Shown in pieces: positions 4,736 to 43,918 of a stretch of 64,000 nucleotides of DNA. Each line of letters starts with the position of its first letter. Position 1 is the first letter of the stretch. Under the pieces are notes generated by a model. It saw only the letters and a program-made list of their open reading frames with translations. It was not told where the DNA came from and ran no database searches. Both the position numbers and the translations under genes were made by a program. Origin of the DNA: an uncultured Clostridium sp. (lineage in GTDB: Bacteria > Bacillota > Clostridia > Ch29); contig CAZVBE010000002.1 in assembly GCA_964625335.1 (NCBI GenBank), positions 36,689 to 100,688 on the forward strand, in the 5' to 3' direction.

Positions 4736-4985
4736 AAAATTAATAGTTCAGGAAAGACAGTGAAGGGAAGTAGTAATTCGATTCCGTTTCCACAGAAAGA
4801 AAGCCCGCGGCTGAAAGGCTTTTGGAACAGGGCGAATGAAGCAGTCCCGGAGTTGCAGTATCGAAATGAGAGTAGATGCTGCCGGATGTATCCGTTATAT
4901 ATTACAAGAGGCCGTTTTTAGGCAATTAGGGTGGTACCGCGGATTAGTCCCCGTCCCTGACACACGTCAGAGACGGGGTTTTTAT
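4736..4985 (+). promoter_or_regulatory. T-box leader RNA (tRNA-Ala responsive) with terminator
   Basis: Conserved T-box sequence AATTAGGGTGGTACCGCGG at 4924-4942. It is followed by the terminator CCCCGTCCCTGACACACGTCAGAGACGGGG TTTTT (4948-4985). The leader lies upstream of alaS, as in other Firmicutes. Confidence 0.8.
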
Positions 4986-5016
4986 TATCAACGGTGTGTC
5001 CCCCTACCCGAAAGAC

Positions 5017-5035
5017 TATCAATCGGGGACATTCC
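5017..5035 (+). repeat. dispersed short repeat unit TATCAATCGGGGACATTCC (copy A)
   Basis: Near-identical copies at 62009-62035 and 63313-63341. Each is preceded by CCCG-NRAG and flanked by GGTGTGTCCCC/GGGGACATTCC-type inverted units (4987-5003, 5055-5071). Confidence 0.7.
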
Positions 5036-5097
5036 GTAATGAGGAATACCCGAATATCAACGGTGTGTCCCCATACCACTATAGAGGAGGTTATAGA

Positions 5098-10336: not shown

Positions 10337-11287
10337 ATGGAGTATAAGTATTTGGGGCAAACAGGCATTAGGGTATCAAGGCTCTGTTTTGGGAGCCTTA
10401 CCATCAGTCCACTGCAGGTAAACCTTACCGTTGCCGAGGGTACAAAGCTGATAGCAGCGGCAATGGAGCGGGGCATAAATTTTTTGGACACGGCAGAGCT
10501 TTACGATAATTACCGGCATATCAGGGAAGCCTTACGGGGGCAGCCCAGGGAAAGCCTAGTTATAGCCACTAAAACCTATGCCTATACAAAGGAAATGGCA
10601 GAGGACAGCCTTAGGAAGGCATTAAAGGATATAAATGTCGACCATATAGACATATTTCTCCTGCACGAGCAGGAAAGTCAGCTTACATTAAAGGGCCATA
10701 ATGAAGCAATAGAATATTTGCTTAGGGCTAAGGAGAAGGGCTACATTTCCGCCTTTGGGGTGTCCACCCACCATGTTGAATGTGTAAAAGCTGCGGCCCG
10801 GTGGGATGATATACAGGTGGTTCACCCGATAGTAAACATTAAGGGACTGGGTATATCAGACGGCGGTATTGAAGATATGCTTGAGGCTATAAAACTGGCC
10901 GGTAACAATGGGAAGGGAATATACGCAATGAAGCCGTTGGGCGGCGGCAACATAGGCGGAAATTTCAGGGAATGCTTTGATTTCGTGTTAGGTATACCCC
11001 AAATAGATTCAATAGCTGTGGGAATGCAGTGCCGTGAAGAATTGGAAGTTAACCTTGCAATATTCGAAAACCGGCCTGTAGACAGGGATACTGAGAAGAT
11101 ATTGGCCGGCCGGCAGAGGCGCCTCCTTATAGAACCATGGTGTGAGGGATGTGGAAACTGTGTTTTGGCCTGCAGGCAGGGGGCTTTGCATTTAAAGGAC
11201 GGGAAGGCGGTTGTAAGGCAGGATATATGTACATTGTGCGGCTATTGTGCAGCGGGGTGCAAAAACTTTTATATTAAAGTAATGTGA
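10337..11287 (+). CDS. aldo/keto reductase fused to C-terminal 2x[4Fe-4S] ferredoxin domain
   Basis: AKR core (GINFLDTAELY..) plus C-terminal CEGCGNCVLAC and CTLCGYCAAGC cluster motifs. Confidence 0.75.
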   Translation: MEYKYLGQTGIRVSRLCFGSLTISPLQVNLTVAEGTKLIAAAMERGINFLDTAELYDNYRHIREALRGQPRESLVIATKTYAYTKEMAEDSLRKALKDINVDHIDIFLLHEQESQLTLKGHNEAIEYLLRAKEKGYISAFGVSTHHVECVKAAARWDDIQVVHPIVNIKGLGISDGGIEDMLEAIKLAGNNGKGIYAMKPLGGGNIGGNFRECFDFVLGIPQIDSIAVGMQCREELEVNLAIFENRPVDRDTEKILAGRQRRLLIEPWCEGCGNCVLACRQGALHLKDGKAVVRQDICTLCGYCAAGCKNFYIKVM

Positions 11288-12106: not shown

Positions 12107-13495
12107 ATGAAGAGTTTAATACCACTGGATGAAGCGTTAAACTACAGCAGAAAACAGGTCAGGGAAGGCTACAAACAATATGTCAACCCGGGGCTTGCCA
12201 ATATGCTGGCTCTCCTTGATTTTGACAAAAGGTTTATAAGGGCAGAAGGTGTACAGGTGTGGGACCAACAGGGAGAAGAATATCTTGATTTTCTCGGCGG
12301 TTATGGAGCCCTAAACCTGGGGCATAACCCTGAAGTTGTTATAGAAGCCGTGCAGAGGGTTGCGGACCTGCCTAATATACTGCAGGCTTCGTTAAATCCA
12401 CTTGCCGCCGCTTTGGCAGAGAATCTTGCCCGCATAACACCCGGTGATTTAAAGTATTCTTTTTTTTGCAACAGCGGTACAGAGGCAGTGGAGGCGGCCT
12501 TGAAAATGTCAAGGCTGTGCAGTGGAAAGAGCAGGATTTTGTATTGCAGCAATTCCTTCCACGGAAAATCCTTCGGTTCACTTTCGGTTACAGGCAGAGA
12601 CAAATATAAAACGCCCTTCGGACCAACGCTGCCCGATTGCCAGGGAGTGGAGTACGACAATCTTTCTGCGCTGGAAGAAGGGTTGGCGAAGAAGGACGTT
12701 GCTGCGGTTATAGTAGAGCCAATACAGGGAGAAGGGGGTATTATAGTACCCAGAGCCGGATATTTAAGCGGTGTCAGGGAATTGTGCGACAGGTACCAGG
12801 CGTTGCTCATAATTGACGAAATACAATCCGGACTGGGCAGAACCGGAAAGTATTTTGACTGCGAACACGAAAATGTGGTGCCTGATATTATGTGTCTGGC
12901 TAAATCGTTGGGTGGAGGGATAATGCCCATAGGGGCATGTATTGCTGCCGGAAAGGTGTATGATAAAGCATATGGCAGTATGGACAGGTGTCTGTTGCAT
13001 ACCTCTACCTTTGGGGGCAATTCAAGGGCAATGGCTGCGGGGATTGCAGCCCTCGGATACATAGTTGACAATCGACTGGATTTGAAGGCAAAGGAAATGG
13101 GCGATTATGCTCTGGAAAGGATGCGGGATATGAAGGATCGATACCCGCTTATTAAGGATATAAGGGGCAGAGGGCTGATGCTGGGGATAGAGTTTCACAG
13201 CGGGGAAGGTAGCCTGATTGACAGGCTGTCGGGCGGAACCGCTTCCCGGTTGGGCAGGGAATATATAGGGGCTTTGGTGGCCGGTGAACTGCTTAACAAA
13301 CACAGGATAATTACAGCCTATACCCTTAATAATCCCAATGTAATAAGGCTGGAGCCGCCTCTAATAGTTAGCAGGCAGCAGATAGATTATGTGATTGAAA
13401 GTCTTGCAAGTATTATGCAGGCAAACAAAGGTGCCTTTCAAATGGCTTTATCCGGCGTTAAGAGTTCGGTAACCGGTAAACTAAAGAAAAAGTGA
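12107..13495 (+). CDS. class-III PLP-dependent aminotransferase (ornithine/acetylornithine/putrescine-type)
   Basis: 462 aa with the DEIQSGLGRTGK PLP-lysine region and GG..P motif. Substrate specificity cannot be read from sequence alone. Confidence 0.8.
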   Translation: MKSLIPLDEALNYSRKQVREGYKQYVNPGLANMLALLDFDKRFIRAEGVQVWDQQGEEYLDFLGGYGALNLGHNPEVVIEAVQRVADLPNILQASLNPLAAALAENLARITPGDLKYSFFCNSGTEAVEAALKMSRLCSGKSRILYCSNSFHGKSFGSLSVTGRDKYKTPFGPTLPDCQGVEYDNLSALEEGLAKKDVAAVIVEPIQGEGGIIVPRAGYLSGVRELCDRYQALLIIDEIQSGLGRTGKYFDCEHENVVPDIMCLAKSLGGGIMPIGACIAAGKVYDKAYGSMDRCLLHTSTFGGNSRAMAAGIAALGYIVDNRLDLKAKEMGDYALERMRDMKDRYPLIKDIRGRGLMLGIEFHSGEGSLIDRLSGGTASRLGREYIGALVAGELLNKHRIITAYTLNNPNVIRLEPPLIVSRQQIDYVIESLASIMQANKGAFQMALSGVKSSVTGKLKKK

Positions 13496-18460: not shown

Positions 18461-18509
18461 AAAAATAACTAGTCTATATGACGAAAGAACACTTTAAGGA
18501 GGCGGGCAA

Positions 18510-19505
18510 TTGTATCCGGATAAAATTTTCTACGAGCCTGCTGTTTTGGGCTACGAGCTTGGCAGAAAGCTGAAAGAAAAGTATAAAAACGTCCCATGGC
18601 TGCCAATCGAAAGCCACAACAATATCGGGCAGTTGCGCCGCAATCCCAATAAAGAATTTGCCAGGATGAAGAAGCATCTTATTATAGGTGTCAGAAAATC
18701 CTTGAAATACACGCCAAACCATAAGGTTTCGGATTTTCTGGTACCGTACACTTCGTCGGGTTGCAGTGCCATGTGTCTTTACTGCTATTTAGTGTGTAAC
18801 TATAACAAATGCTCATACCTCAGACTGTTCGTAAACCGCGAGCGGATGATGGATAAACTGATAAAGACAGCAAACCATTCGGAAAAAGATATTGTTTTTG
18901 AGATTGGCAGCAACAGCGACCTTGTTTTGGAAAACACCATTACGGGAAATCTGGAATGGACTGTAGAAAGCTTTGGCAAAACCTCAAAAGGATTTCTTAC
19001 ATTTCCTACTAAGTTTGACATGGTGGAACCGCTCCTTGGGCTGGAACACAGGGGAAGAGTCATCATGCGTATGAGCGTGAACCCGGAAGAAATCATACGA
19101 AAAGTAGAGTTCGGAACGGCTTCTCTGAAAGCAAGGATAAGTGCACTAAACCGTATGTGCGATGCAGGATACAGAGTAGGGATGCTGATAGCTCCTGTAG
19201 TAATGGCAGAGAACTGGATGGAGCTTTACGGACGGCTGATGGAACAGCTGTCCGACGAGATTTCTCAAAAGGTAAAGGACCAATTACTTATCGAAATTAT
19301 TTTTATGACTTACAGCTACGTACACCGGGCAATCAACCGGGAGGCGTTCCCAAATGCAGTGGAGTTGTTTGACAAATCCCTTATGACCGGCCGGGGCCGG
19401 GGGAAATACTGCTACCGGGAAGATGTAAGAGCTATGGGCGAACAGTTTTTAAGGGAACAGATCTCACAAAAATTAAGCGGTATTCCAATAGTCTATGTGG
19501 TTTAA
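18510..19505 (+). CDS. splB: spore photoproduct lyase (radical SAM)
   Basis: CSAMCLYCY radical-SAM cluster motif and collinear similarity to Bacillus SplB over the whole 331 aa. Confidence 0.85.
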   Translation: MYPDKIFYEPAVLGYELGRKLKEKYKNVPWLPIESHNNIGQLRRNPNKEFARMKKHLIIGVRKSLKYTPNHKVSDFLVPYTSSGCSAMCLYCYLVCNYNKCSYLRLFVNRERMMDKLIKTANHSEKDIVFEIGSNSDLVLENTITGNLEWTVESFGKTSKGFLTFPTKFDMVEPLLGLEHRGRVIMRMSVNPEEIIRKVEFGTASLKARISALNRMCDAGYRVGMLIAPVVMAENWMELYGRLMEQLSDEISQKVKDQLLIEIIFMTYSYVHRAINREAFPNAVELFDKSLMTGRGRGKYCYREDVRAMGEQFLREQISQKLSGIPIVYVV

Positions 19506-21328: not shown

Positions 21329-22087
21329 ATGCCAAGAGGAGCAAGAAAGAAAAGCGAAAGCGGGATATATCATATTTTGTTGCGAGGGCAAAACAGGCAG
21401 ATAATTTTCGAAGATGATGAGGATAAAGAAAGGTTTATACAAACATTAAAAGACTGTAAAAACAAAAGCGGATGGAAAATATACGGATATTGCCTAATGG
21501 GAAACCATATTCATTTGTTGCTGCACGAATTTGACGAAGAAACAGGAATAATAATGCGGCGGATTGGCGCGAGTTATGTATACTGGTATAACTGGAAGTA
21601 TAAACGCTGTGGACACTTGTTTCAGGACCGTTATAAAAGTGAAGCGGTTGAAACAGAAAAGTATTTTTTAACAGTCCTTCGATACATACATCAAAACCCG
21701 GTAAAGGCTGGTCACGCAAAGAAGGCCCTGGATTATAAATGGAGCAGCTATAATGAATATATGAATAATAACGGGATAACGGATACCGGCTTTGCACTGG
21801 GCATTTTCAATGAGGACAGGGAAAAGGCGATTCAGAATTTCATAGATTTTCATAATGAACAAAAAGAAGCTAATTGCCTTGAAATGGAAGAGCGCTTCAG
21901 GCTGACAGATGAAGAAGCAATGGCCATCATAAAGGAGGAGTATTGCGTATCCAGTAGTTTGCAGCTAAAGGATTTTGAAAAAAAGAAAAGAGACATATGT
22001 ATAAAAGAGCTAAAAGATAAAGGTCTGTCGACAAGGCAAATAGAGCGGCTGACGGGGATAAGCAGATACATTATTCTGAAAATGTAA
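21329..22087 (+). CDS. Y1/HUH transposase, REP-associated tyrosine transposase-like (IS200/IS605 TnpA superfamily) with C-terminal HTH
   Basis: HuH motif GNHIHLLLHE and a downstream catalytic-Tyr region (DRYKSEAVE). The C-terminal LSTRQIERLTGISRYIILKM looks like an HTH. The gene is flanked by inverted REPs. Confidence 0.75.
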   Translation: MPRGARKKSESGIYHILLRGQNRQIIFEDDEDKERFIQTLKDCKNKSGWKIYGYCLMGNHIHLLLHEFDEETGIIMRRIGASYVYWYNWKYKRCGHLFQDRYKSEAVETEKYFLTVLRYIHQNPVKAGHAKKALDYKWSSYNEYMNNNGITDTGFALGIFNEDREKAIQNFIDFHNEQKEANCLEMEERFRLTDEEAMAIIKEEYCVSSSLQLKDFEKKKRDICIKELKDKGLSTRQIERLTGISRYIILKM

Positions 22088-25032: not shown

Positions 25033-25116
25033 GCATGAAAAAGGCAAACCTGACGAAAGTCAGGGACGCAAAGCTGCGAGTCTACGGTAATCTTACTACG
25101 ACAGTCGGGCTGCCAT
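25033..25116 (+). promoter_or_regulatory. c-di-GMP-I (GEMM) riboswitch aptamer
   Basis: GGCAAACC-TGAC-GAAA-GTCA-GGGACGCAAAGC..CGGGCTGCC matches the GEMM-I core. That core is GGCAAACC, a P2 stem with GAAA tetraloop, GGGACGCAAAGC, and a 3' G-rich closing strand. Compare the V. cholerae Vc2 segment GGGCAAACCAUUCGAAAGAGUGGGACGCAAAGCC. Confidence 0.75.
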
Positions 25117-25142
25117 AAGACATAATACATTAGTTTATGGCT

Positions 25143-25171: not shown

Positions 25172-25207
25172 ATGTTATTTCCGGACTATATGGAAGGGGA
25201 AAAAATC

Positions 25208-26323
25208 TTGCTACAGTTGGCTAGAACTCTTGTTTTTATGGAAATGCTGTTTATAAATTTGATAACCACGCACCGCTGTTCGCGGACAAGATATTCACAA
25301 AAGAGTATTACAGCAGGATTAATTTTTTATACGGCTTTGGTGATGTTGACTTCTTTTTTAATCAAGCGTAATCTTAGACTGGAGTTTCTTAACGGCAGTA
25401 TAATCATCTTACTGGGATTTACTTATTTTTTTCCATTAAAGTACTTGTATGATGAATCTTCAGGTAAAATTTTGGCTATCATGTTTTTTTCCTGGATTCA
25501 CACAATGGCTGTGACCTCTATATCTATACAGATTTCTATGCTGTTTGAATTGGACAATTATTTTTATCTGGCTCTTATATTACAAACCATAATCTATTTA
25601 GTCAGCACCCGGGCTGTAATACGTTTTGTAAAGAATAAGTTTATACCTATTTTGAAGAACATTCCGAAGGAAATGAACAAACACCTTATCGTACTAAGCC
25701 TGATGGAATTCACGTCTGTGACGATAGTCTATCTATTCTTTAACGAAAACGCAAATCCTTACTGGACAATAATAATAGTGGCACTGATAGCGTCAATAGC
25801 AGCGATAAACTACCATTTAATCTATGTAGTAGTTAAAAACTATAAAAGTATAAGCTTTTTAAAACTGCTTGCTTATTCGGATACTCTAACCGGTATCAAA
25901 AACAGACTGGCACTTTTTCTTGATTGCGATAAACTGATTTCCCAAAATAAGCCCTTCACTTATATATATATGGACCTGGATGATTTCAAAAAAGTAAATG
26001 ATACATACGGTCACTCTGTCGGGGATGATTATCTGAAGCAGTTTACCAAAGCAGCAATAGAAACGATAGGGGATAAAGGAAGCATCTACAGAATGTCAGG
26101 CGATGAATTTGTCTGTATATATAACGAAGACAAAATAGATTTATTACTGGCAACATTTGATGAAAAAGTTATGAACCTGTTTGAAATGAGCGTACCGTTC
26201 TTAGGAGTTAGTATTGGCTATGCAAAGTTTCCTGAAGATGCCGATTCGTTGGATAAACTTGTGAATAAAGCAGATAAAATCATGTATAAAGTCAAAAAAA
26301 CCAATAAACTCAAACCGATTTAG
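25208..26323 (+). CDS. membrane-anchored GGDEF-domain protein with SGDEF variant motif
   Basis: About 6 N-terminal TM helices, then a GGDEF domain whose signature reads RMSGDEFV (SGDEF). The start is uncertain: ATG 25172 has no RBS, TTG 25208 follows GGAAGGGG. Confidence 0.7.
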   Translation: MLQLARTLVFMEMLFINLITTHRCSRTRYSQKSITAGLIFYTALVMLTSFLIKRNLRLEFLNGSIIILLGFTYFFPLKYLYDESSGKILAIMFFSWIHTMAVTSISIQISMLFELDNYFYLALILQTIIYLVSTRAVIRFVKNKFIPILKNIPKEMNKHLIVLSLMEFTSVTIVYLFFNENANPYWTIIIVALIASIAAINYHLIYVVVKNYKSISFLKLLAYSDTLTGIKNRLALFLDCDKLISQNKPFTYIYMDLDDFKKVNDTYGHSVGDDYLKQFTKAAIETIGDKGSIYRMSGDEFVCIYNEDKIDLLLATFDEKVMNLFEMSVPFLGVSIGYAKFPEDADSLDKLVNKADKIMYKVKKTNKLKPI

Positions 26324-29305: not shown

Positions 29306-32300
29306 ATGATGAAAAAAAAGCTATTATGTATTTTGGGATTTTTATTATTCTTTGTTCTTATTAAACCTGTTTTTGCTTCCGGATCAGGTATCATAACCTT
29401 TAAATATGATGATTTTGCAAATCCCGGTTTAATTAAACTGGATGGTACGGATGGTTATGCCAGAATAATACACGATTCTTCTACAGGGAAAGATGTGATT
29501 AGGCTGACTCCTGCAGATAGTATTACAGCTGTCAGAGGTACTGCGTATTATAAAAATTATGTTTCTCTTGCAAACGATCGCTCTTTCAGTACTTATTTTA
29601 CTTTTAAAATAATTCCGATTGGCGAGGGTGCAGATGGTATTGTCTTTATATTAAATAACGATACCAACGAATTAGGTGGCGGTGGTGGCGGCATGGGGTA
29701 TGCCAATATGGATAATAGCATAGGTATTGAATTTGATACCTACGATAATAGCTACAATTGGGGGGGAGGTACGCCTTCCAATACGTATGGGGATGACGGA
29801 CTTGGTAATGGGCGGTATGGATTTAGTCATATGGCTGTCAATGTTAATGGTGATATCGATAAGCCGGTTGCTACTGCTTCTAATACGCAAATAGCCGATT
29901 ATACCGGCGAACCATGTAATTTCAAGAATGGACAATTACATCATGTGTGGATTGATTACGATGGCCCAAATTCTACTATAGAAGTGCGAATAAGCAAGGA
30001 TATAAACAGGCCTGATGAGGCTCTTATTACTTATGATGATCTTGACCTTAATAATATTTTGAAGCAAGACGAAGTTTATGTGGGATTTTCTGCATCAACC
30101 GGCGGAAGCAAGGAATCCCATGATATTTACCAGTGGTATTTTAATAATGATTTTACCCCTATAGACACAGCAGATAAAACTTATGTCTCTGCGCCATCAG
30201 TTAGTCTAACTGCTACTCCCGTTACTGATATAGAAACCACTCTTACTGCTGTATTGACAAACGCTGACGGTTCTTTGTCGCCCAATGAACAAGTGGCGTT
30301 TAGCACAAATTTAGGAACGCTTAGTGATACATCAGCTACTACTAATGAAGATGGCGAAGCAAGTGTTACCTTGATAAATGATACTAATGGCGGGGCTTAT
30401 GTCAAAGCAGCAGCAGCATACGGGGCTTATGATGAAGTTATAATGCCGCCCAATGTGCCGACACTTGAAGTCAGTACCACCACTTCCATTACCCTTTCCC
30501 CGATAGTTGATGCCGAATATAAAATGGATGATGGAGAGTGGCAGGACAGTAATCACTTTTCTGATCTTTCTATGAATACCGAGTACACATTTTATGCCAG
30601 AATGAAGGAAACCCCAACAAGTGCAGCGTCAATCGAAACCACCGGTGTAACTTTTGCGACATTGCCATATACAGTTACCTATAAAGGAAATGGTAATACA
30701 GGTGGCACAGCACCCAATGATTCCAGTCAATATGAATATGGAGCAACTGTAACTGTATTAGGACAGGGTGATCTGGAAAGGGCTGGTTATACATTTTCTG
30801 GTTGGGCTACCAATGCTGACGGAACCGGAACCACATATAAAGAAGATGATACTTTTTCTATGGGATCAGGAAATATTAACCTCTGGGCTAAATGGATAAT
30901 CAATGGGTACACTGTAACCTTCCTGGATCATGATGGAACACAATTAAAAACAGAAACAGTAGCACATGGAAACAGTGCAACGGCACCGGATGCTCCGACA
31001 AGAGAAGGTTATACCTTTACAGGCTGGGACAAAGCGTATGATAACGTAATATCTGATTTGGAGGTAACAGTCCAATACAATATTAATGAATACAAAGTAA
31101 GTTTCGCAAGTACTGGTGGAAGTGCAGTTGATTTCATCAAAGCGGATTATGGAACAACTATAACGGAACCAACAGTGCCATCAAAAGAAGGTTATACCTT
31201 TGGAGGTTGGTATAAGGAAGCGGGATTAATAAACCGGTGGAATTTTGAGAGCGATACAATTCCCGCAGAGGATATATCTCTATATGCGAAATGGGATACA
31301 GTTGACTATAGTATTACCTACAATCTTGATGGTGGGGCAAATAACGGAATCAATCCGTCAAGCTATACAATAGAAACTGATACAATAACCCTGTGTACAC
31401 CGACCAGGACCGGATACACATTTCTAGGGTGGTATGATGCACAGACAGATGGCAATAAGATATCAGATATAGTGAAAGGCAGCACCGGCGACAAGACTTT
31501 GTGGGCACGATGGATATCCAATGAAAGCCTCTGGATATCTGTTAACCCTGACATAGTTGCCGGCAGCATTAACTTTAGCCAGGAATTTGAACTAGCCCTC
31601 AATAATGATACAGTGGCAGGAACAGTTTATGCATCTGACATAACCCTTGGGGGTGTATTTGCAGGACTGGATATATCAGCGGTTGATAATACAAGCACAA
31701 CAGTTACTGCAGAGGTTTATGGTAACCTGAATAGCGAAGGGACAGGTACAATCACATTAAACGGCAGCAGGCTTAAAATAAGTACGAACGCATTAGCATC
31801 AGAAGTAACAGTTGGCCTTAATAAGGTAACCTATGACAGTAACGAAAGTACAGGGGGAAGCGTACCAACCGACAATAATAAATATGCACAAGAAGCAAGT
31901 GTTACAGTGCTTGGTAACATAGGCGGTTTAGAAAAAAGAGGATATAGTTTTGATGGATGGAATACAAAAAGTGATGGAAGTGGATATTCCTATAAAGCTG
32001 ATGATGTATTTAGTATGGGCGCAAACAATGTAAACTTGTACGCAATATGGAAACCGGCTATAGTAACGCGTCATAGGCCGTCAAGCAGAGGAAGTAGTAA
32101 TACGCCTTCGGCAGAAATACTCATCAATGGAAAAACAGAGGCTGCGGCTACTTCCAGTACAAAAACAGTTGATGATAAAACTGTTACGACTGTAGCATTA
32201 GACGACAGGATAGTAGAAGAAAAGCTTCAAAATGAAGGCAATAACGCTATGGTGACCATACCTGTCAAAAATACTTCAGATATAGTGATTGGACAGCTAA

Positions 32301-33358
32301 ATGCGCAGACCGTTAAAAATATGGAGGAGAAGGAGGGCGCACTGGAAATAAAAACCTGGAACGTGACTTATACGATTCCGGCATCGCAGATAAATATTGA
32401 TAAGGTTTCAGAACAGATTGGCAGAGAGGTTGCATTAGATGACATTTTAGTCAATATAGAAATATCCGTTCCGCCCGACGAAACAGTAGAAATTATTGAG
32501 GATACGTCAAACGCCGGCGGCTTTATGCTTGTGGCGGAGCCGGTGGGGTTTGAAATCAACTGTAGGTATGGAGACAGGGCTGTGGAGGTGTCGAGATTTA
32601 ACAGCTATGTGGAGCGCACCATTGCCATCCCTGAAGGGGCTGATACTTCAAAGATTACCACCGCCGTAGTGTTGAATCCTGACGGAAGCTTTTCCCATGT
32701 TCCGACAGCTATTGTTGAAATCGAAGGTAAATACTATGCAAAAATCAACAGCTTGACTAACAGCATCTACTCTGTCATCTATAATCCCAAGATATTCAAG
32801 GATGTTGAAAATCACTGGGCAAAAGATGCAGTGAACGATATGGGCTCAAGATTGGTTATCAGTGGAGTTGGTAAAGACAGGTTTGAGCCGGACAGGAATA
32901 TCACAAGAGCAGAGTTTACAGTAGTTGTAGTCAGGGCACTTGGTCTTATGCAGTATGAAACCGGAGAGGATGTCTTCAACGATGTTCCGAATAATGCATG
33001 GTATCACGATGCAGTTTCAGCAGCCTATGAATATGGCATAATAACCGGTTACGGAGACGGAAGGTTCGACCCTAACGACAAGATAACCCGCGAACAGGCT
33101 TTTACCATGATATCAAGAGCAATGAACATTACCAGACAAAAAGTTGAATTTCCATCCGGCGAGGTCGAAAAGCTTCTTGCAGGCTTCAGGGATTCTGACA
33201 AATCGGCAGCTTATGCGAAAAACAGTATTGCTTCATGCATTAAATCCGGAATTGTTTCCGGCAGGAATGGCAATCTGATAGCCCCAACAGATAACATCAC
33301 CAGGGCGGAAACTGCGGTGATGGTCAGAAGGCTGCTGCAGAAATCGAATTTGATATAA
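29306..33358 (+). CDS. S-layer homology surface protein with N-terminal legume-lectin-like domain, Ig-like region, Flg_new (Listeria-Bacteroides) repeats and three C-terminal SLH domains
   Basis: Signal peptide, then a concanavalin-like lectin region. At least five YTF[ST]GW..DGTG..Y..DD repeats follow. Three SLH repeats are present (FKDVENHWAKDAVNDM.., FNDVPNNAWYHDAVSAAYEYGIITGY.., FRDSDKSAAYAKNSIA..). Confidence 0.85.
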   Translation: MMKKKLLCILGFLLFFVLIKPVFASGSGIITFKYDDFANPGLIKLDGTDGYARIIHDSSTGKDVIRLTPADSITAVRGTAYYKNYVSLANDRSFSTYFTFKIIPIGEGADGIVFILNNDTNELGGGGGGMGYANMDNSIGIEFDTYDNSYNWGGGTPSNTYGDDGLGNGRYGFSHMAVNVNGDIDKPVATASNTQIADYTGEPCNFKNGQLHHVWIDYDGPNSTIEVRISKDINRPDEALITYDDLDLNNILKQDEVYVGFSASTGGSKESHDIYQWYFNNDFTPIDTADKTYVSAPSVSLTATPVTDIETTLTAVLTNADGSLSPNEQVAFSTNLGTLSDTSATTNEDGEASVTLINDTNGGAYVKAAAAYGAYDEVIMPPNVPTLEVSTTTSITLSPIVDAEYKMDDGEWQDSNHFSDLSMNTEYTFYARMKETPTSAASIETTGVTFATLPYTVTYKGNGNTGGTAPNDSSQYEYGATVTVLGQGDLERAGYTFSGWATNADGTGTTYKEDDTFSMGSGNINLWAKWIINGYTVTFLDHDGTQLKTETVAHGNSATAPDAPTREGYTFTGWDKAYDNVISDLEVTVQYNINEYKVSFASTGGSAVDFIKADYGTTITEPTVPSKEGYTFGGWYKEAGLINRWNFESDTIPAEDISLYAKWDTVDYSITYNLDGGANNGINPSSYTIETDTITLCTPTRTGYTFLGWYDAQTDGNKISDIVKGSTGDKTLWARWISNESLWISVNPDIVAGSINFSQEFELALNNDTVAGTVYASDITLGGVFAGLDISAVDNTSTTVTAEVYGNLNSEGTGTITLNGSRLKISTNALASEVTVGLNKVTYDSNESTGGSVPTDNNKYAQEASVTVLGNIGGLEKRGYSFDGWNTKSDGSGYSYKADDVFSMGANNVNLYAIWKPAIVTRHRPSSRGSSNTPSAEILINGKTEAAATSSTKTVDDKTVTTVALDDRIVEEKLQNEGNNAMVTIPVKNTSDIVIGQLNAQTVKNMEEKEGALEIKTWNVTYTIPASQINIDKVSEQIGREVALDDILVNIEISVPPDETVEIIEDTSNAGGFMLVAEPVGFEINCRYGDRAVEVSRFNSYVERTIAIPEGADTSKITTAVVLNPDGSFSHVPTAIVEIEGKYYAKINSLTNSIYSVIYNPKIFKDVENHWAKDAVNDMGSRLVISGVGKDRFEPDRNITRAEFTVVVVRALGLMQYETGEDVFNDVPNNAWYHDAVSAAYEYGIITGYGDGRFDPNDKITREQAFTMISRAMNITRQKVEFPSGEVEKLLAGFRDSDKSAAYAKNSIASCIKSGIVSGRNGNLIAPTDNITRAETAVMVRRLLQKSNLI

Positions 33359-33721: not shown

Positions 33722-35410
33722 ATGAAAATATCAACAAAGTTTGGCGGCATCATGCTGAGTATTGTATTGCTAACCGGATTTCTTATGATTTTTACAATTA
33801 ATTCCTTAAGTAGTATAAGCGGTATTATAAGTGAGCACCGGGACAGAAATACGCCTTTAATGATTACCTCGTTATCTTTACAAAAAGATATAATTCAGAT
33901 ACAGCAGTGGCTCACGGATATATCGGCCACCCGGGGAATGCCGGGCTTTGACGACGGGTTTGATATGGCATCGGATTACTATAATAGTGCAAAAGACAAA
34001 ATTAAAGTATTAAGGGAACTGGGAGTTGAAACTGAACTTGCAGATACTATTTCTAATGATTTGGATGAATTCTACCAGACAGGTATAGAAATGGCGAATA
34101 CATATATCGATGAGGGAACCGATGCCGGCAACATATTTATGGATATATTCGATCCCTATGCCGCAAGGATTGAAGATAGTGTCGGTGTTCTTTTGAATGA
34201 GGCGGATGAAGCTTTTAACAATGGAAACAGCATGATAGTTTTGAGTATTAATGATTTATATCAAAAATCTATAATCCTTTTCGGTATTGTTATTTTAATA
34301 AGTATCCTCTCTTTCTTTATTATTCAAAACCTTGTAATAAAACGTTTAAAAACGATGACCGGAATCTTTAAGGATATTTCAGAAGGAGAAGGGGATTTAA
34401 CCAAACGGGTTGACGTTAAATCAAAGGATGAAATCGGAAGCATGGCAGTTTATTTTAATAATTTCTCAGACACTATTCATAGAATTGTTTCTACGGTCAA
34501 AGAAGTTTCCGAAAAAGTAAGCAGGGCTTCAGAAGAGTTAACGGATAACTCTCATCACTCGGCTGCGGCTGCAGAAGAAGTGGCGCAGACCATAGACGAA
34601 ATTGCCAAGGGTGCAACAAGTCAGGCAGAAAATACTGTTGGAGGTTCCGAAGAATTGATGCATCTTGGAGAACTTATCGAAGAAAACAAAAGACACATCG
34701 AAGTATTTATGCAATTATCAAGCAGGATAAATGGACTGGTAAGCCAGGGGCTCAATATAATTGATAAACTGACATTGACGACTGAAGAAAGCAGCAGCGC
34801 GGCAAACAGTGTCTATCAGAGCATAATGAAGACCAATAAGAGTTCTGAGAAAATAAGCGAAGCAAGCAGCCTTATCACATCTATTGCAGAGCAGACAAAT
34901 CTGCTTGCATTAAATGCGGCTATTGAAGCAGCCCGGGCAGGGGAACACGGGAAGGGTTTTGCTGTGGTGGCGGAAGAAATAAGGAAGCTTGCCGAAGAGT
35001 CGACGGATTCCACAAAGGTTATTGATGATATGATAAAGAACTTGCGTCAGGACGCAGCCCAGGCGGTGGAAATCATGAAAAGGGTGGAAAAGATTCTTAA
35101 GGAGCAGTTTGAGAGTGTTAGTACCACCGAAAGCAAATACAGGGAGATTGCTGAGGAAATGGACAAGTCAAAAGAAACCGTGCAAACAATAAACCAGACC
35201 GGCATACAAATGGAACAAAAGAAGAATGGAGTGCTGGATACCATTCAAATGCTTTCATCAATAGCGGAAGAAAACGCAGCAGCAACCGAGCAGGTTTCCG
35301 CATCTATACAGGAACAAACAGCTTCCATTGAAAAAATCGCAAACGCAAGTGAAAGTCTGTCCGAGTTGTTCCGGGAGCTTCACTCGACAATCGAAAGATT
35401 TAAAGTATAA
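33722..35410 (+). CDS. methyl-accepting chemotaxis protein
   Basis: Two TM helices bracketing a periplasmic domain of about 150 aa, then HAMP and the MCP signalling domain (..[32 protein letters not shown]..). Confidence 0.85.
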
Positions 35411-35657
35411 TGATACGCAGAAACTGAGGCGGAAGGCTGGGCAGGCAATTTTTATAAGAACAGATTTGACAAAGATTAAAAGGCATTCCAACCGAATATA
35501 TGGTTTGAAAATGGCGTCCCAAACGGGAGGCTCTTTCATGTCTGTTTTCCCATAGCTATAAAGGATCACGTCTTGATGTTTTACAAGTAGTATGATATAT
35601 ATACTTTAAATCGCTTATGAATTTTGAACCTCAAATTGACATTGAGGAGGCGTTGTA

Positions 35658-38039
35658 ATGGGAAAAGACTATTTGGAACGTATAGAATACCTGAAAAGGC
35701 GGGTAGTAAACACCAGACCCGAAATAGACCTTGAGAATGCCAGGATCCTGACAAAAAGCTTTATAGAAACCGCAGGAGAGCCTCTGGCTGTTCGTAAGGC
35801 AAAGGCATTTCGCAGGCAGTGCGAGGAAAAGACGGTTAAAATATGGGAAGAAGAGCTTATAGTCGGCTGTTCGGGAAGTAAGATGCGGGCAGGGATTTTG
35901 TGCGCCGATACATGCTGGTCGATACTTGACGATGAACTTGATACAATCAGCACCAGGAAATATGATCCGTTTTATTTAACCGACCAGGACAGAAAAACAT
36001 TTCAAGAAGAAATTAAACCCTTCTGGAAAGGACGTTCCAATTATGAAGCTTGGCAAAAACAGATTCCTGAGGATACGAAGGTTCTAAGGGATAACGGTGT
36101 GGTTTATATAAACCGCAAGGCGGTACGCGGCTGGGGCGAAACAACCGCCGGCTATAGTCAAATCATTGAAGAAGGCGTTGTGGGTATCCGCAAAAACATT
36201 GAAAAGCGGAAAGCCGGGCTGGACCTTACAGTGCCGGGGGATTATGAAAGGGACTGTTATTTGGAGGCTATGCTTATTTCGGCAGAGGGGATTGAAATTT
36301 TAGCGAAGCGGTATGCAAAAGAAGCCGAAAGGCTGGCTGTTCTTGAAGAAGACCCGGTCAGAAAAGCTGAGCTGGAGATAATCGCGAGAACATGCTATCA
36401 CGTGCCCAAGTATCCTGCGAGAACTTTCAGGGAAGCGCTTCAGTCTCTATATCTATATCAAATATGTATTTTTATGGAGCAAAACGCCGCCAGCTACAAC
36501 CCCGGAAGAATGGACCAATACCTGTATCCATATTACAAAGCCGATTTGGATGAAGGAAGGATTACCCGGGATAAGGCCCAGGAGCTGCTTGACTGTCTGT
36601 GGGTCAAGTTCAGCGAGCCGTGCCTGTTCCAGGATGCACAAACTGCGGAGTTTGCCGCCGGATATCCCATGTTCCAGAACGTATGCGTGGGCGGGGTGGA
36701 TTCTACCGGCAGAGATGCCGTGAACGATTTGTCATATATGATTTTGCAGGCGACGATGGATGTAAGGCTATACCAGCCGTCCCTGTCGGTCAGGTACAGT
36801 CTTTCAAAAAATCCGAACAAGTTTTTGAGAAAGGTGATAGAGCTTATAAGGTTAGGCACAGGATTTCCGGCGTTCCATAACGACGATATCGGAATCCGCA
36901 TGGTTATGAATAAAGGAATCCCGTTAAAAGAAGCCTACGATTGGAATCCCTGCGGCTGCGTTGAAACCAATCTGGAGGGGCGGCTGCGCCACTATACCGC
37001 TTTGGCGGATATTAATCTGGGAAGTATCATTGAATTTGTAATGCTAAACGGCCGCAACAAAAAGAGCGGATTATATATTTCTGAACAAACCGGCAATCCT
37101 GTCACGTTTAAAACCTATAAAGAGTTTGAAGACGCAGTCAAAAAACAGCTTTCCTATGCCGTACGTGCAGTTGTTAAAGGAAGCCACGTTATAGATGAGG
37201 TATGTATGGATAGGCCCGTTCCGGCACTGTCTCTTACATTCAGGGAATGTGTGGAAAAGGCAAAGGATTATGCGCACGGCGGTGCCAAATATAACACCGG
37301 CAACGGCATAATACTGATTGGAGTAGCCGATTTAATCAACAGCTTAGCCGCCGTAAAAAGTATGGTATACGATACCAAACAGGTAACTATGGAACAGCTT
37401 GTTACGGCATTAGAATCTGACTTTGAAGGATATGAACGAATCCATAAATTGTGCAAGGACGCACCGAAATACGGAAATGATGACGACACGGCAGATGATA
37501 TAGCCGGTGAAATCTTTACCTTTATTGCAGACGAGATTGAAAAATATCACAGTAAATTTGGCCGTATGACACCGGGTATTCTGCCGGTTTCGGGGAATAC
37601 GCCCTTTGGCCTGGAAGTAGGTGCACTGCCTTCGGGACGCCGCGCATGGAAACCCCTGGCGGATGGGGTAAGTCCCAATGGCGGTACTGATTTCAACGGG
37701 CCCGGAGCAGTTCTTAAATCCGTTGCCCACATTCCCCATGACCGTTTTGTACAGGGAACATTACTGAATATGAAAATAGAGCCGGCGCTGTTGGCAAGCG
37801 AAAACGGTATTATTCAGATGATGGCACTTTTAAAGAGCATGTGCAGCCTGGGTATCTTTCATGTCCAGTTCAACGTAATTGACCGCGATGTATTGATTGA
37901 GGCGCAAAAGCATCCGGAAAAGTACAAGGGGCTTTTAATCCGGGTTGCGGGATACACCGCATATTTTGTAGAGCTCGGGAAGGACGTTCAGGACGAGATT
38001 ATCGGCAGGACTGTCCAATCGGGAATTTCGGCGGGATAG
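35658..38039 (+). CDS. glycyl radical enzyme, single-Cys eliminase type (glycerol dehydratase / HypD / CutC clade), substrate unknown
   Basis: 793 aa. Gly-radical motif LIRVAGYTAYFVEL near the C-terminus. Active-site loop NPCGCVETN has Cys-x-Glu rather than the PFL Cys-Cys. Confidence 0.85.
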   Translation: MGKDYLERIEYLKRRVVNTRPEIDLENARILTKSFIETAGEPLAVRKAKAFRRQCEEKTVKIWEEELIVGCSGSKMRAGILCADTCWSILDDELDTISTRKYDPFYLTDQDRKTFQEEIKPFWKGRSNYEAWQKQIPEDTKVLRDNGVVYINRKAVRGWGETTAGYSQIIEEGVVGIRKNIEKRKAGLDLTVPGDYERDCYLEAMLISAEGIEILAKRYAKEAERLAVLEEDPVRKAELEIIARTCYHVPKYPARTFREALQSLYLYQICIFMEQNAASYNPGRMDQYLYPYYKADLDEGRITRDKAQELLDCLWVKFSEPCLFQDAQTAEFAAGYPMFQNVCVGGVDSTGRDAVNDLSYMILQATMDVRLYQPSLSVRYSLSKNPNKFLRKVIELIRLGTGFPAFHNDDIGIRMVMNKGIPLKEAYDWNPCGCVETNLEGRLRHYTALADINLGSIIEFVMLNGRNKKSGLYISEQTGNPVTFKTYKEFEDAVKKQLSYAVRAVVKGSHVIDEVCMDRPVPALSLTFRECVEKAKDYAHGGAKYNTGNGIILIGVADLINSLAAVKSMVYDTKQVTMEQLVTALESDFEGYERIHKLCKDAPKYGNDDDTADDIAGEIFTFIADEIEKYHSKFGRMTPGILPVSGNTPFGLEVGALPSGRRAWKPLADGVSPNGGTDFNGPGAVLKSVAHIPHDRFVQGTLLNMKIEPALLASENGIIQMMALLKSMCSLGIFHVQFNVIDRDVLIEAQKHPEKYKGLLIRVAGYTAYFVELGKDVQDEIIGRTVQSGISAG

Positions 38040-38088
38040 AAAAACATTACAGCTGTCCGAAAACAATAATAAAAGTAAGGAGAAAAGA

Positions 38089-38874
38089 ATGGACATATCA
38101 GGCAGAGTATTGCGGATAGAAAAAACTTCAATATATGACGGGCAGGGGCTTCGGACGGTTGTATTCCTGAAGGGGTGTCCGTTAAGGTGTAAATGGTGCT
38201 CGACGCCGGAGGCACAAAACTTCGAAGCCGAATTCGGATATGGAACAGATATGACTGTATCAGAGGTGGTTGAGGAGATTTCCAAGGATGAAATATTCTT
38301 TTTCCATTCCGGCGGCGGCGTGACCATAAGCGGCGGTGAAGTATTGGTCCAGGAGGATTTTGCAGCAGAAATACTGAAAGAATGTTTAAAAAGAGGAATT
38401 CATACTGCGATTGAATCCAGTTTCTACTCAGACTATGGACGAATTGAAAAACTAATGCCGTACCTGAAAGCTGTCTATGTGGATATAAAGCATATGGACG
38501 ATAAAGCCCACAGGGCATGGACCGGCGTTTCCAATACAAAAATCCTGGAAAACATACACCGGCTGGACCGATCGTGTTATCCTGCAGAAGTCCATGTGCG
38601 CATACCTGTTATTCCGGGGATTAATAATGGCGAGGAAAACCTGTTGGCGGTTACAGGATTTTGTCAGGGCCTTAAAAAATTACGTGATATTGAACTGCTG
38701 CCCTATCACAGGCTCGGAATCAATACTTACAAGAAAATGGGTAAAGAATATGAACTGATGGATGTGAAGCCCCCTTCAAAGGAAACCCTGCATAAGTGTG
38801 CAGAATTTATGGCAAATCACGCAAAGGGTTTAGAAATCATAGCAGGCGAAAAAGTCTTTGCGTCTAGGGATTGA
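38089..38874 (+). CDS. glycyl-radical enzyme activating enzyme (radical SAM), short PflA-like form
   Basis: CPLRCKWC radical-SAM motif at the N-terminus and a glycine-rich SAM motif (GGGVTISGGE). Only 261 aa, with no additional CxxCxxCxxxC ferredoxin insert. Confidence 0.85.
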   Translation: MDISGRVLRIEKTSIYDGQGLRTVVFLKGCPLRCKWCSTPEAQNFEAEFGYGTDMTVSEVVEEISKDEIFFFHSGGGVTISGGEVLVQEDFAAEILKECLKRGIHTAIESSFYSDYGRIEKLMPYLKAVYVDIKHMDDKAHRAWTGVSNTKILENIHRLDRSCYPAEVHVRIPVIPGINNGEENLLAVTGFCQGLKKLRDIELLPYHRLGINTYKKMGKEYELMDVKPPSKETLHKCAEFMANHAKGLEIIAGEKVFASRD

Positions 38875-39041
38875 TTTTGACCATTAAAAAGGCCGTAGTA
38901 TTCCAGCGGATTAAAAACTTAAAAAGAAGGGTTGACTCTCCGGTTAGGGGAGAGAGTAGACTTGATGTATCCGGAGAAAGTGAGGCAAGTAATATGTATC
39001 GCATTGGCCTGTTTTCAAAGATTTCAAAGACTACCGTTTTA

Positions 39042-39072
39042 CAAAACCACACCCTAAATAGTGTGGTTTTTT
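39042..39072 (+). terminator. intrinsic terminator after the activase gene
   Basis: AAAACCACAC-cctaaata-GTGTGGTTTTTT. Confidence 0.7.
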
Positions 39073-39181
39073 GTTATATGGCGGTGCATGTAATTGATAT
39101 TGATTGTTATACCGGGGCCCTGTGCCCGGTACTTAACCATAAGAATTTTATTGTCACCGGCTGTCTTTTTGACTTAGTCTA

Positions 39182-39237
39182 TTGACATGCGGCATAGAAA
39201 GTTATATATTTATAACATAAAGTTATAAATATATAAC
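39182..39237 (+). promoter_or_regulatory. promoter with overlapping inverted-repeat operator (GTTATATATTTATAAC / GTTATAAATATATAAC)
   Basis: TTGACA (39182-87), 17 nt, TATATT. Two 16-mers that are mutual reverse complements (39201-39216 and 39222-39237) cover the -10 and +1 region. Confidence 0.55.
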
Positions 39238-42922: not shown

Positions 42923-43017
42923 AAAAGGCATATTGCATATAAGGATATCCTGCAGTCGCCGTTTTATGCAAAAACAATTATAATTTTTACCGGTTGTGGG
43001 GAAGGAAGGAGTTAATT

Positions 43018-43419
43018 ATGAAAAGAAGGCGGGTAGTATTGTTAACTATCTTGATAATTGTTATAGGATTTGTCATTGCTGCGGCGGGAATTATGACATT
43101 TGCGAAAAAAGGGCTGGAACAACTTGCGCATACAACCATTTCAGACGTAGACCTTGCCGGGATGGAGGATGGTGTTTATACCGGCAGTTATAAAGCGTTT
43201 CCGGTTGCCGCCGAAGTCACGGTCAATGTAAACAACCACAAAATAACCGGAATTGAGCTGGTAAAACATAATAACGGCCAGGGAGCCCCGGCAGAGGTGA
43301 TACCCGAAAGAGTTGTAAAAGCTCAAACCCTGGATGTCGATATGGTTTCCGGTGCCACTTACAGCAGCAGGGTAATCCTGAAGGCCATAGAAAACGCGCT
43401 GGAAAGCGCCGGCAAATAA
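43018..43419 (+). CDS. FMN-binding domain membrane-anchored protein
   Basis: N-terminal TM helix, then the FMN_bind motif VDMVSGATYSSRVILKAIENAL. ATG 43018 follows GGGAAGGAAGGAG. Confidence 0.65.
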   Translation: MKRRRVVLLTILIIVIGFVIAAAGIMTFAKKGLEQLAHTTISDVDLAGMEDGVYTGSYKAFPVAAEVTVNVNNHKITGIELVKHNNGQGAPAEVIPERVVKAQTLDVDMVSGATYSSRVILKAIENALESAGK

Positions 43420-43441
43420 GAATTTGTTTAAGGAGGCTGTC

Positions 43442-43918
43442 ATGAAGATAGGTATGATAGTTCATTCCCATACCGGCAATACCTACTCGGTTGCCCGGAA
43501 GCTCGAGGAGAAGCTGTTAATGGCCGGACATTCGGTGAGGATAGAGCAGATAGCTCCTGTCGGTGGTGAGAAGACCAATGAAAGGGATACAACAAAAATT
43601 CAATTGATAACACATCCGGATTTATGTAGATACGATGCGCTGATATTTTGTGGCCCGGTCCGCGGAGCTTCTATTTCCCCTGTGTTAGCCGCCTGCCTGG
43701 CACAGGTTACATCATTAAAGAATAAAAAGGTAGCCTGTTTGGTCACCGAAGCCTTTCCCTACCCGTGGATGGGCGGAAACCGTGCAGTCGCACAGATGAA
43801 AAATATCTGCCAGTCCAAAGGCGGGGAAGTCTGTGGTACAGGAATAGTGAACTGGATGGGTAAGGGACGCGAAAAAAGGATCGCCAATGTGATTGAAGAT
43901 TTAAGCGGATTGTTTTAG
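43442..43918 (+). CDS. flavodoxin-like protein
   Basis: MKIGMIVHSHTGNTYSVA is a flavodoxin phosphate-binding loop. About 158 aa. Confidence 0.6.
   Translation: MKIGMIVHSHTGNTYSVARKLEEKLLMAGHSVRIEQIAPVGGEKTNERDTTKIQLITHPDLCRYDALIFCGPVRGASISPVLAACLAQVTSLKNKKVACLVTEAFPYPWMGGNRAVAQMKNICQSKGGEVCGTGIVNWMGKGREKRIANVIEDLSGLF

Follow-up and report, generated by a model that had tools for sequence, protein, structure and literature searches.

HpyG and HpzG are glycyl radical enzymes (GREs) whose solved structures correspond to PDB entries 8ID1 and 8IOF, respectively, according to a 2026 review (PMC13450708). In both enzymes Cys435 adjoins C5 of the substrate and Glu437 hydrogen-bonds the substrate hydroxyl (PMC13450708), and the CXE motif formed by such a pair defines the GREs of the 1,2-eliminase class (PMC13450708, PMC7077986). 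In HypD, the trans-4-hydroxy-L-proline dehydratase (6VXC/6VXE), the equivalent of HpyG Ser334 is essential and binds the substrate carboxylate, and Trp277 stands beside the catalytic Asp278, which is needed for a secondary amine (PMC7077986). The great majority of GRE activases carry a ferredoxin-like domain, the activating enzymes of pyruvate formate-lyase (PFL-AE) and of ribonucleotide reductase (RNR-AE) being the exceptions (PMC13450708), and the role of this domain is an acknowledged open question (PMC13450708, PMC10239695). IbsAE and 4-Hpad-AE can activate their enzymes without a strict need for the auxiliary clusters, with poorer radical persistence in the case of 4-Hpad-AE (PMC10239695). 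Here we analyse a GRE gene and the activase gene directly 3' of it in a stretch of 64,000 nucleotides, hereafter the window, from an uncultured Clostridium sp. (contig CAZVBE010000002.1, positions 36,689 to 100,688 of the forward strand).

The explanation that we favour, with a probability of about 0.62, is a self-contained unit that pairs an oxygen-sensitive hydroxyproline-derivative eliminase of the HpyG family with a cognate activase that has lost the two-cluster insert. The part of this reading that concerns the enzyme alone is firmer, as the GRE is very probably a hydroxyproline-derivative dehydratase of the HpyG/HpzG group.

Family and active site of the glycyl radical enzyme

The GRE was matched by the Pfam domains PFL-like (E 2e-202) and Gly_radical (E 7e-31, residues 668-771). 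Residues 762-766 read RVAGY, in agreement with the RVxG[FY] pattern of the GRE class, and the active-site loop reads G-C434-V-E436, in agreement with the CXE motif of the 1,2-eliminases and without the Cys-Cys pair of pyruvate formate-lyase (PFL). Since the first cysteine of the 'CGC' sequence varies among relatives, which read PAGCVE or PGGCVE at this site, Cys434 alone would be the catalytic cysteine.

A phmmer search of the PDB with the GRE gave HpyG (8ID1) as the best match, with 1279.8 bits over an end-to-end, gap-free alignment, followed by HpzG (8IOF) with 955 bits. The other solved GREs scored far lower, with at most 690 bits for the choline trimethylamine-lyases (CutC) and about 530-550 bits for the propanediol/glycerol dehydratases and HypD. 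The identity of the GRE was 68.5% to HpyG and 52.2% to HpzG, and that between HpyG and HpzG was 50.4%, with the HpyG and HpzG sequences rebuilt from the PDB-search alignments. The names given by the depositors of 8ID1 and 8IOF ('formate C-acetyltransferase' and 'benzylsuccinate synthase alpha') were uninformative. In NCBIfam, only the broad PFL2-3 subfamily model exceeded its cutoff and the equivalog models for CutC, HypD and HpsG all remained below theirs. NCBIfam has no HpyG model, which explains why the enzyme looks unassignable and why databases label such proteins as formate acetyltransferase or choline lyase.

We then fetched 80 related loci, one genome per species, together with loci from exact-protein look-ups, and obtained 71 scorable GRE-activase pairs. 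In a neighbour-joining (NJ) tree rooted on HpzG, the GRE of the window fell inside the HpyG family; among characterised GREs, HpyG is its nearest by sequence. Three groups were seen in this tree, namely a basal pair of Desulfobacteraceae members, a clade A that comprises HpyG itself (source protein P0121, contig L005), Eubacterium maltosivorans and Lachnospiraceae members, and a large clade B. The last includes the GRE of the window with those of Clostridium, Faecalicatena, Blautia, Terrisporobacter and Enterococcus, as well as Desulfosporosinus, Formimonas, Synergistota and Desulfocapsaceae members. Between the window and the related locus L008 (dS ∼1.1), dN/dS of the GRE was 0.048.

To compare the substrate pockets, 16 positions were transferred by alignment via Desulfovibrio alaskensis CutC and the HypD pocket, using the HypD/CutC equivalences of PMC7077986 and a CutC numbering calibrated on eleven pocket residues (Y208, D216, T334, F389, F395, C489, E491, T502, Y506, L698 and I700). 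The resulting pocket of the window GRE consists of R153, R157, E161, A277, A278, D326, A333, M338, F339, C434, V435, E436, T447, D451, L642 and V644. It was identical to that of HpyG at 15 of the 16 mapped positions, with A333 against HpyG Ser334 as the sole mismatch, and it followed HpyG at all four positions that discriminate HpyG from HpzG (R153, A278, F339 and D451).

An initial annotation of this DNA, made from its letters without database searches, had described a 793-aa GRE with the motif RVAGYTAYF and a single-cysteine CGCVE loop, and had grouped it with the eliminase-type GREs and not with true PFL. Both points were borne out, the former with the refinement on Cys434 given above and the latter by the CXE loop and the alignment with HpyG. 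The specificity, which the same annotation had called unassignable, is a different matter, because the GRE clusters clearly with a characterised subfamily and matches HpyG at 15 of the 16 mapped pocket positions; HpyG and HpzG were absent from the enzymes with which it had been compared. Judged by its sequence, the GRE is a further member of the known, recently characterised HpyG family, and its specificity appears largely assignable.

An activase without the ferredoxin-like insert

The protein encoded after the GRE has the features of a GRE activase, with a CX3CX2C motif formed by C30, C34 and C37 and an S-adenosylmethionine (SAM)-binding GGE motif (S81-G-G-E84). Across 50 short homologues Cys34, Cys37 and SGGE were invariant and Cys30 was conserved in at least 90%. 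Pfam returned only Radical_SAM and Fer4_12, and neither the motif scan nor Pfam detected a CX2CX2CX3C motif or a Fer4 dicluster domain in the 261 residues, which contain seven cysteines in total (30, 34, 37, 99, 163, 192 and 237). The protein therefore does not have the insert with two CX2CX2CX3C motifs that follows the radical-SAM motif in three-cluster activases, and its assignment to their lineage is supported by sequence and not by architecture. In a MAFFT alignment, 10 residues of this activase (NFEAEFGYGT) stood against 64 residues in HpyG's own activase and other long activases. The missing 54 aa hold both CX2CX2CX3C motifs, the gap is clean and in-frame, and its flanks are conserved between short and long activases (CPLRCKWCSTPE... 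and ...YG.DMTV.EV). The minimal activase with CPLRCKWC as its only cluster motif, as the initial annotation had described it, is thus real, and the insert that it had expected as normal is present in 50 of the 71 related activases, including that of HpyG.

Family models placed the activase with those of the eliminase-type enzymes. The GRE activase model TIGR02494 (PFLE_PFLC) scored 263.8 bits against a cutoff of 174 and matched in two stretches around the insert, with residues 51-243 covering profile positions 100-291. The PflA equivalogs were not reached (TIGR02493, 199.6 against a cutoff of 231.75; PRK11145, 177.6 against 375), and the models for HpsH (256), the HypD activase (HypD-AE, 249), CutD (231) and the IAD activase all scored above the PflA equivalog, with no equivalog cutoff reached by any of them. 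Over shared alignment columns, core identity was 48-57% to the long activases of the family (47.9% to that of HpyG) and 47-77% to other short forms, and the identity to Escherichia coli PflA was 31-34%. In the NJ tree, E. coli PflA stood as the outgroup to the activases of this GRE family irrespective of their length. An AlphaFold model built with the alignment of 50 short homologues (pLDDT 91.3) superposed on E. coli PFL-AE with TM scores of 0.87/0.93 and an rmsd of ∼2 Å. These results indicate a protein of PflA-like architecture and, as far as its sequence tells, of eliminase-type ancestry with the insert deleted, so that the earlier description as PflA-like holds for architecture and fold and fails for the sequence. 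An origin from PflA was rejected on the family-model scores, the tree and the identities.

It had also been considered that an alignment with full-length PFL2-type activases might expose a missed insert or a frameshift. The activase does align with them, but across a clean in-frame deletion. A hidden insert or frameshift was rejected, as the open reading frame (ORF) runs without a break, the gap keeps the frame, and activases of this short form also occur in locus L008, in L069 and in dozens of clusters from the databases.

The short form is recurrent within the family. Short activases were found in 21 of the 71 species loci and long ones in the other 50, and the best 120 database homologues comprised 64 proteins of 249-280 aa without Fer4 and 56 of 304-354 aa with Fer4. 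In a search against 50%-identity representatives, short (single-stretch) and long (two-stretch) matches were interleaved. Carriers of the short form include the cultured organisms Terrisporobacter mayombei DSM 6539 and Faecalicatena contorta. The short activase of locus L056 lay inside clade A in 85 of 100 bootstraps and that of L034 among the long Desulfocapsaceae forms in 83 of 100, and all short forms together were never monophyletic (0/100), by which a single origin of the short activases was rejected. Short forms are nested among long ones, and the sequence comparison therefore supports at least three independent losses of the insert in this GRE family. No correlation was observed between the glycyl loop of the GRE and activase length, the same motif occurring beside short and long forms. 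In the comparison of the window with L008, dN/dS of the activase was 0.116, and the short activase gene thus appears to be maintained by purifying selection. We consider the short activase likely, with good confidence, to be functional, and it would represent a little-described, recurrent ferredoxin-less variant of the eliminase-type activase. Our literature search found no account of naturally insert-less activases for eliminase-type GREs, which is no proof that none exists.

The 261-aa protein might still be an ordinary PflA orthologue that came to lie beside the GRE by chance, or the pair might be a decaying remnant. The single-domain architecture, the PFL-AE-like fold and the JGI annotation 'pyruvate formate lyase activating enzyme' are all in line with the former. 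Against it, the PFLA equivalog stays below its cutoff and identity is 34% to E. coli PflA but 48-57% to the long activases of the family, in all related loci that could be scored the activase gene is the one immediately 3' of the GRE, the GRE and activase trees are largely congruent, and a scan of the window ORFs found no PFL gene. The dN/dS values of 0.05 for the GRE and 0.12 for the activase speak against decay. We regard this as the least probable of the readings considered, barely credible beside a cognate activase that lost its insert.

Possibly interrupted activase genes were seen at two of the related loci. In Desulfosporosinus sp. SB140 (CP144211.1, locus L004, 12394-14266), two tandem long activases are each called as two ORFs (143+179 and 141+164 aa), with the breaks falling just after the ferredoxin-like insert; their orthologues in L022 and L027 are intact, and the breaks could be sequencing frameshifts or real disruption. 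In L090, with a GRE identity of 85%, the GRE is followed by a gene that is called as two fragments (124+155 aa, 12372-13168) without Pfam matches, which may be a disrupted activase.

Gene context and the proposed substrate and reaction

The gene context of the relatives points to catabolism of hydroxyproline derivatives. On the HpyG contig, a pyrroline-5-carboxylate reductase (P5CR)-like gene, a helix-turn-helix (HTH)-cupin regulator, HpyG and a 313-aa activase follow one another, and the E. maltosivorans locus additionally has an MttB-family methyltransferase and a major facilitator superfamily (MFS) transporter. The link to MttB is that N-methyl-hydroxyproline reportedly arises by demethylation of hydroxyproline betaine. 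In clade B, a P5CR-like gene adjoins the GREs of L091 (83% identity to the window GRE), Terrisporobacter mayombei (78%), L062 and L047 (both 70%), Formimonas and others, and the commonest unit in the sub-clade of the window consists of an AraC-type regulator, the GRE and a short activase. In loci of Desulfosporosinus and Desulfocapsaceae, genes for amino-acid ABC transporters of the branched-chain type, for a protein of the proline-racemase family and for OCD/mu-crystallin are also present, along with a second GRE of 785 aa.

This second GRE was found with its own long activase right after the HpyG-family pair in four Desulfosporosinus loci (L004, 14305-16662; L022; L027; L033), where it adjoins the proline-racemase-family and OCD/mu-crystallin genes. 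Its length matches that of HplG (7VUA).

Over the 71 family members, the 16 pocket positions were near-invariant and the only systematic split was between serine and alanine at the position of HpyG Ser334, with serine in all 14 members of clade A and alanine in 49 of the 55 members of clade B and in both basal members. Several points weigh against the explanation given at the outset. The characterised HpyG belongs to the sister clade A, in which Ser334 is found throughout and MttB, MFS and P5CR genes are frequent neighbours. MttB neighbours occur in clade A and beside both basal members, but at none of the 55 clade-B loci. Because the equivalent serine is the essential carboxylate binder in HypD, the clade-wide change from Ser334 to alanine could alter substrate binding, and its combination with the missing MttB in clade B is the main doubt. 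In the 64-kb window, moreover, the pair stands without a P5CR, an MttB, a transporter or a regulator of its own, so that the association with P5CR-like and MttB-type genes, which belongs to the context of the HpyG-type pathway and not to the protein as such, is lacking there. The pocket list, being an alignment transfer from CutC and HypD, may miss residues that contact the N-methyl group. As for the activase, the trees were built by NJ only, the main group of short activases was monophyletic in 16 of 100 bootstraps, and the activity of the short form is deduced from conservation alone.

Given these points, the enzyme might have the same family and chemistry and a different substrate, with the Ala333 clade taking a directly imported compound of the 4-hydroxyproline type instead of the product of betaine demethylation; it could be cis-4-hydroxy-L-proline without the methyl group, for example, or a different stereoisomer or a derivative with another N-alkyl group. 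The alanine at the carboxylate-binding position and the distribution of MttB both lean this way, as do the transporters, proline racemase, OCD/mu-crystallin and 785-aa GRE of the Desulfosporosinus and Desulfocapsaceae loci, which point to general hydroxyproline catabolism, and HpyG is known to accept non-native substrates (PMC13450708). On the other hand, the residues shared with the HpyG pocket include Ala277/Ala278, where HypD has Trp277/Asp278 for its secondary amine. Both basal members of the Ala type have MttB neighbours, which places enzymes of this type in a setting of betaine demethylation as well. An identity of 68.5% is also high for GREs of differing substrate, considering that HpyG and HpzG, which differ only in stereochemistry, share ∼50%. 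We hold a substrate of this other kind to be possible but on the unlikely side.

For the favoured HpyG-family reading, we infer the exact substrate and chemistry of the GRE, the latter from published work on HpyG and HypD. The activase, whose ancestor would have been a three-cluster, ferredoxin-domain form serving the same GRE family, would be left with one domain of the PFL-AE kind and the ability to install the radical: its single [4Fe-4S] cluster would cleave SAM reductively and the pro-S hydrogen of Gly765 would be taken. The Gly765 radical would then generate a thiyl radical on Cys434, which would abstract the hydrogen at C5 of its substrate, a 4-hydroxyproline derivative. Glu436 would hold the hydroxyl on C4, which would depart as water, and return of the hydrogen to C4 would give (N-methyl-)pyrroline-5-carboxylate, in the methylated case N-methyl-pyrroline-5-carboxylate. 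Reduction of this product to N-methylproline would fall to a P5C reductase whose gene lies in another part of the genome.

The two-gene unit, its surroundings and known systems

The coordinates of the pair and of the features around it are given in Table 1. The two genes are separated by a spacer of 49 nt, and a GAGGAGG ribosome-binding site was read in the sequence 5' of the GRE start codon (ATG). In a blastn comparison with the locus of the closest relative, L088 (90% GRE identity), a conserved block (L088 9902-13155, window 35559-38859) opened ∼100 bp before this codon. A stronger promoter-like candidate, TCGACA-16-TATAAT at 35384-35411, lies just 5' of and outside the block. At the other end, the terminator-like hairpin is likely the 3' end of the two-gene unit; it is located in a spacer (38860-39200) that L088 does not share. 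The pair is therefore read, from the hairpin and the limits of the conserved block, as what looks like an autonomous bicistronic unit. In the window and its closest relatives (L008 and L088, both 90%; L069, 87%), the gene set is stripped to GRE and activase alone.

Table 1. Positions of the GRE-activase unit and associated features in the window
Feature	Position	Strand	Description
Methyl-accepting chemotaxis protein (MCP) gene	33722-35410	+	HAMP and MCPsignal domains; upstream of GRE, same strand
Conserved 5' leader of the GRE-activase unit	35559-35657	+	Includes GAGGAGG; start of the DNA similarity to the locus of the closest relative
GRE ORF	35658-38039	+	793 aa; PFL-like barrel and glycyl-radical domain
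Cysteine loop C432-G-C434-V-E436	36951-36965	+	Cys434, predicted thiyl-radical cysteine; Glu436, CXE glutamate; aligned with HpyG Cys435/Glu437
Glycyl radical motif RVAGYTAYF	37941-37967	+	Residues 762-770; Gly765
Activase ORF	38089-38874	+	261 aa; single-domain radical-SAM GRE activase, predicted eliminase-type lineage with ferredoxin-like insert deleted
Radical-SAM cluster motif CPLRCKWC	38176-38199	+	Residues 30-37; Cys30, Cys34, Cys37
Site of missing ferredoxin-like insert	38218-38244	+	Residues 44-52, NFEAEFGYG; long forms have 54 more residues with two CX2CX2CX3C
104-aa ORF	38871-39185	+	Overlaps activase stop codon; called in public annotations; contains the terminator-like hairpin
Terminator-like hairpin	39043-39070	+	10-bp stem and T-run, 3' of activase

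The 104-aa ORF had no family match, no cysteine motif and no conservation in L088, and is probably not a gene; a ferredoxin domain split off into a separate small gene was rejected because this ORF has neither the cysteine motif nor a family match. The next ORF encodes a DUF3796 membrane protein. No riboswitch or other known RNA was found in the GRE leader, as the only Rfam matches above gathering thresholds in the window were at 4751-4961 and 25034-25118. Bacterial microcompartment (BMC) shell, iron-containing alcohol dehydrogenase (Fe-ADH)/dhaT-like and P5C-reductase domains were absent from the called genes in the ±10 kb around the pair, and also from ORFs of at least 150 aa in the whole window and from several smaller ORFs, those more than 10 kb from the pair having been scanned in part only. 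The lack of BMC, dhaT and proC partners reported in the initial annotation thus agrees with these scans, but that of proC is local, P5CR adjoining the relatives at 83%, 78% and 70% identity.

The MCP gene ends 247 nt upstream of the GRE on the same strand, and the initial annotation had taken it as a hint of a sensed or metabolised small molecule. A stronger version of this idea is an eliminase of new, unassignable specificity linked to the chemoreceptor that senses its substrate, for which the window without a known pathway partner and the GRE matched by no NCBIfam equivalog, only by the broad PFL2-3 subfamily model, could also be cited. This is very improbable in view of the tight clustering with the characterised and structurally solved HpyG, and the neighbourhood itself disagrees. 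In L088 the pair directly follows a spore photoproduct lyase (SPL) gene and similarity to the window starts at 35559, whereas the SPL orthologue of the window (18488-19503) is ∼16 kb away from the GRE. The MCP lies in the intervening ∼16-kb block (∼19.5-35.5 kb), together with an IS200-type transposase, and no MCP recurs beside the GRE in any of the 71 related loci. On the other side, synteny with L088 resumes at 39201, with DUF3796, HTH, beta-eliminating lyase, FMN_bind and CotF genes followed by DNA methylase, PcsB, FtsEX and FeoB. The block looks like an insertion or rearrangement and the MCP like a chance neighbour of the pair, which leaves the hint from the chemoreceptor unsupported. Functional links to the MCP, to a MalT-type regulator or to a surface-layer (S-layer) lectin protein were rejected, as their adjacency is not conserved.

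The ∼16-kb block contains a nitroreductase gene, which lies upstream of SPL in L088, the IS200/Y1 transposase gene (21329-22087), an amino-acid ABC transporter, a riboswitch-controlled GGDEF gene, the MalT/LuxR-type regulator and the S-layer lectin protein of 1350 aa, as well as the MCP. The riboswitch is a c-di-GMP-I-GGC aptamer at 25034-25118 (+; 75.5 bits, E 4e-16) immediately 5' of the GGDEF gene (25172-26323), and would be a cyclic di-GMP (c-di-GMP)-sensing leader on an enzyme that makes c-di-GMP. The 1350-aa surface protein (29306-33358, +) has an N-terminal legume-type lectin domain, Big_1, five Listeria-Bacteroides repeats and three C-terminal SLH domains. Elsewhere in the window, a T-box leader (4751-4961, +; 124 bits) precedes the alanyl-tRNA synthetase gene (4996-7737), and a 728-aa ORF without Pfam matches at E≤0.001 (8135-10321, +) stands ahead of the gene (10337-11287) for an aldo/keto reductase whose C-terminal part has a 4Fe-4S dicluster motif. 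An FMN_bind protein and a small FMN-reductase/flavodoxin-like protein are encoded 4-5 kb downstream of the activase (42994-43918, +); synteny with L088 includes the former gene but not the latter. In E. coli, the physiological reductant of PFL-AE is flavodoxin (PMC13450708).

What the locus chiefly offers is a natural test bed for the part played by the activase ferredoxin domain, together with a remedy for widespread mis-annotation. Public databases label the GRE and thousands of its relatives 'formate C-acetyltransferase', 'choline trimethylamine-lyase' or 'pyruvate formate-lyase', and these proteins can be placed instead in the HpyG family. This family of N-methyl-hydroxyproline dehydratases channels hydroxyproline betaines of plant and algal origin into anaerobic metabolism. 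With ∼30% of species in one GRE family having an insert-less activase, the family offers matched natural pairs with independent losses under purifying selection, and a comparison of short and long activases on near-identical GREs could reveal what the domain contributes, for instance to the choice of electron donor, to radical yield or to radical persistence. Expression may also be easier with a small activase of one cluster than with three-cluster activases, which are often insoluble. A bolder proposition, in which the Ala333 clade uses a substrate that HpyG does not and the ferredoxin-less activases are fully competent, seems rather unlikely to hold as a whole; if such activases are competent, the enigmatic two-cluster domain would be dispensable in vivo and would have been discarded at least three times in one family.

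Among known systems, HpyG is the closest to the GRE of the window. The two proteins are full-length equivalents without gaps (793 and 792 aa), their cysteine loops (Cys434/Glu436 and Cys435/Glu437) and their glycyl loops are identical, both fall in one family clade to the exclusion of HpzG, and the GRE gene precedes the activase gene in both. The loci differ in that the contig of HpyG has the P5CR-like gene, the HTH-cupin regulator and a 313-aa activase with a ferredoxin domain, none of which is found in the window. HpzG is an eliminase of the same super-clade with 52% identity and the same CXE and glycyl loops, but its pocket differs from that of the window GRE at 5 of 16 positions, with K153 for Arg, S279 for Ala, T340 for Phe, E452 for Asp and, as in HpyG, Ser334 for Ala333.

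HypD shares with the window GRE the eliminase class, the logic of C5-H abstraction and C4-OH elimination and a near-equal numbering around Cys434/Glu436, and its pathway also uses P5C reductase. It scored 528 bits in the PDB search, however, and the NCBIfam HypD equivalog gave 646.5 against a cutoff of 1100. Its pocket is widely replaced in the window GRE, in which His160 corresponds to Glu161, Trp277/Asp278 to Ala277/Ala278, Lys326 to Asp326, Asp339 to Met338, Tyr450 to Asp451 and Thr645 to Val644, and a pocket so unlike that of HypD would fit a tertiary-amine, cis-configured substrate.

On the side of the activase, E. coli PflA (3C8F/3CB8) has the same single-domain, one-cluster architecture and the same fold, and aligns end to end with a length difference of 4 residues after the cluster motif; low identity, the PFLA equivalog score and its outgroup position set it apart. 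The three-cluster activases (HpyG's own, HypD-AE, CutD and HpsH) are the best family-level matches and share the motifs that flank the gap, and they differ from the activase of the window by the 54-aa insert with its two CX2CX2CX3C motifs.

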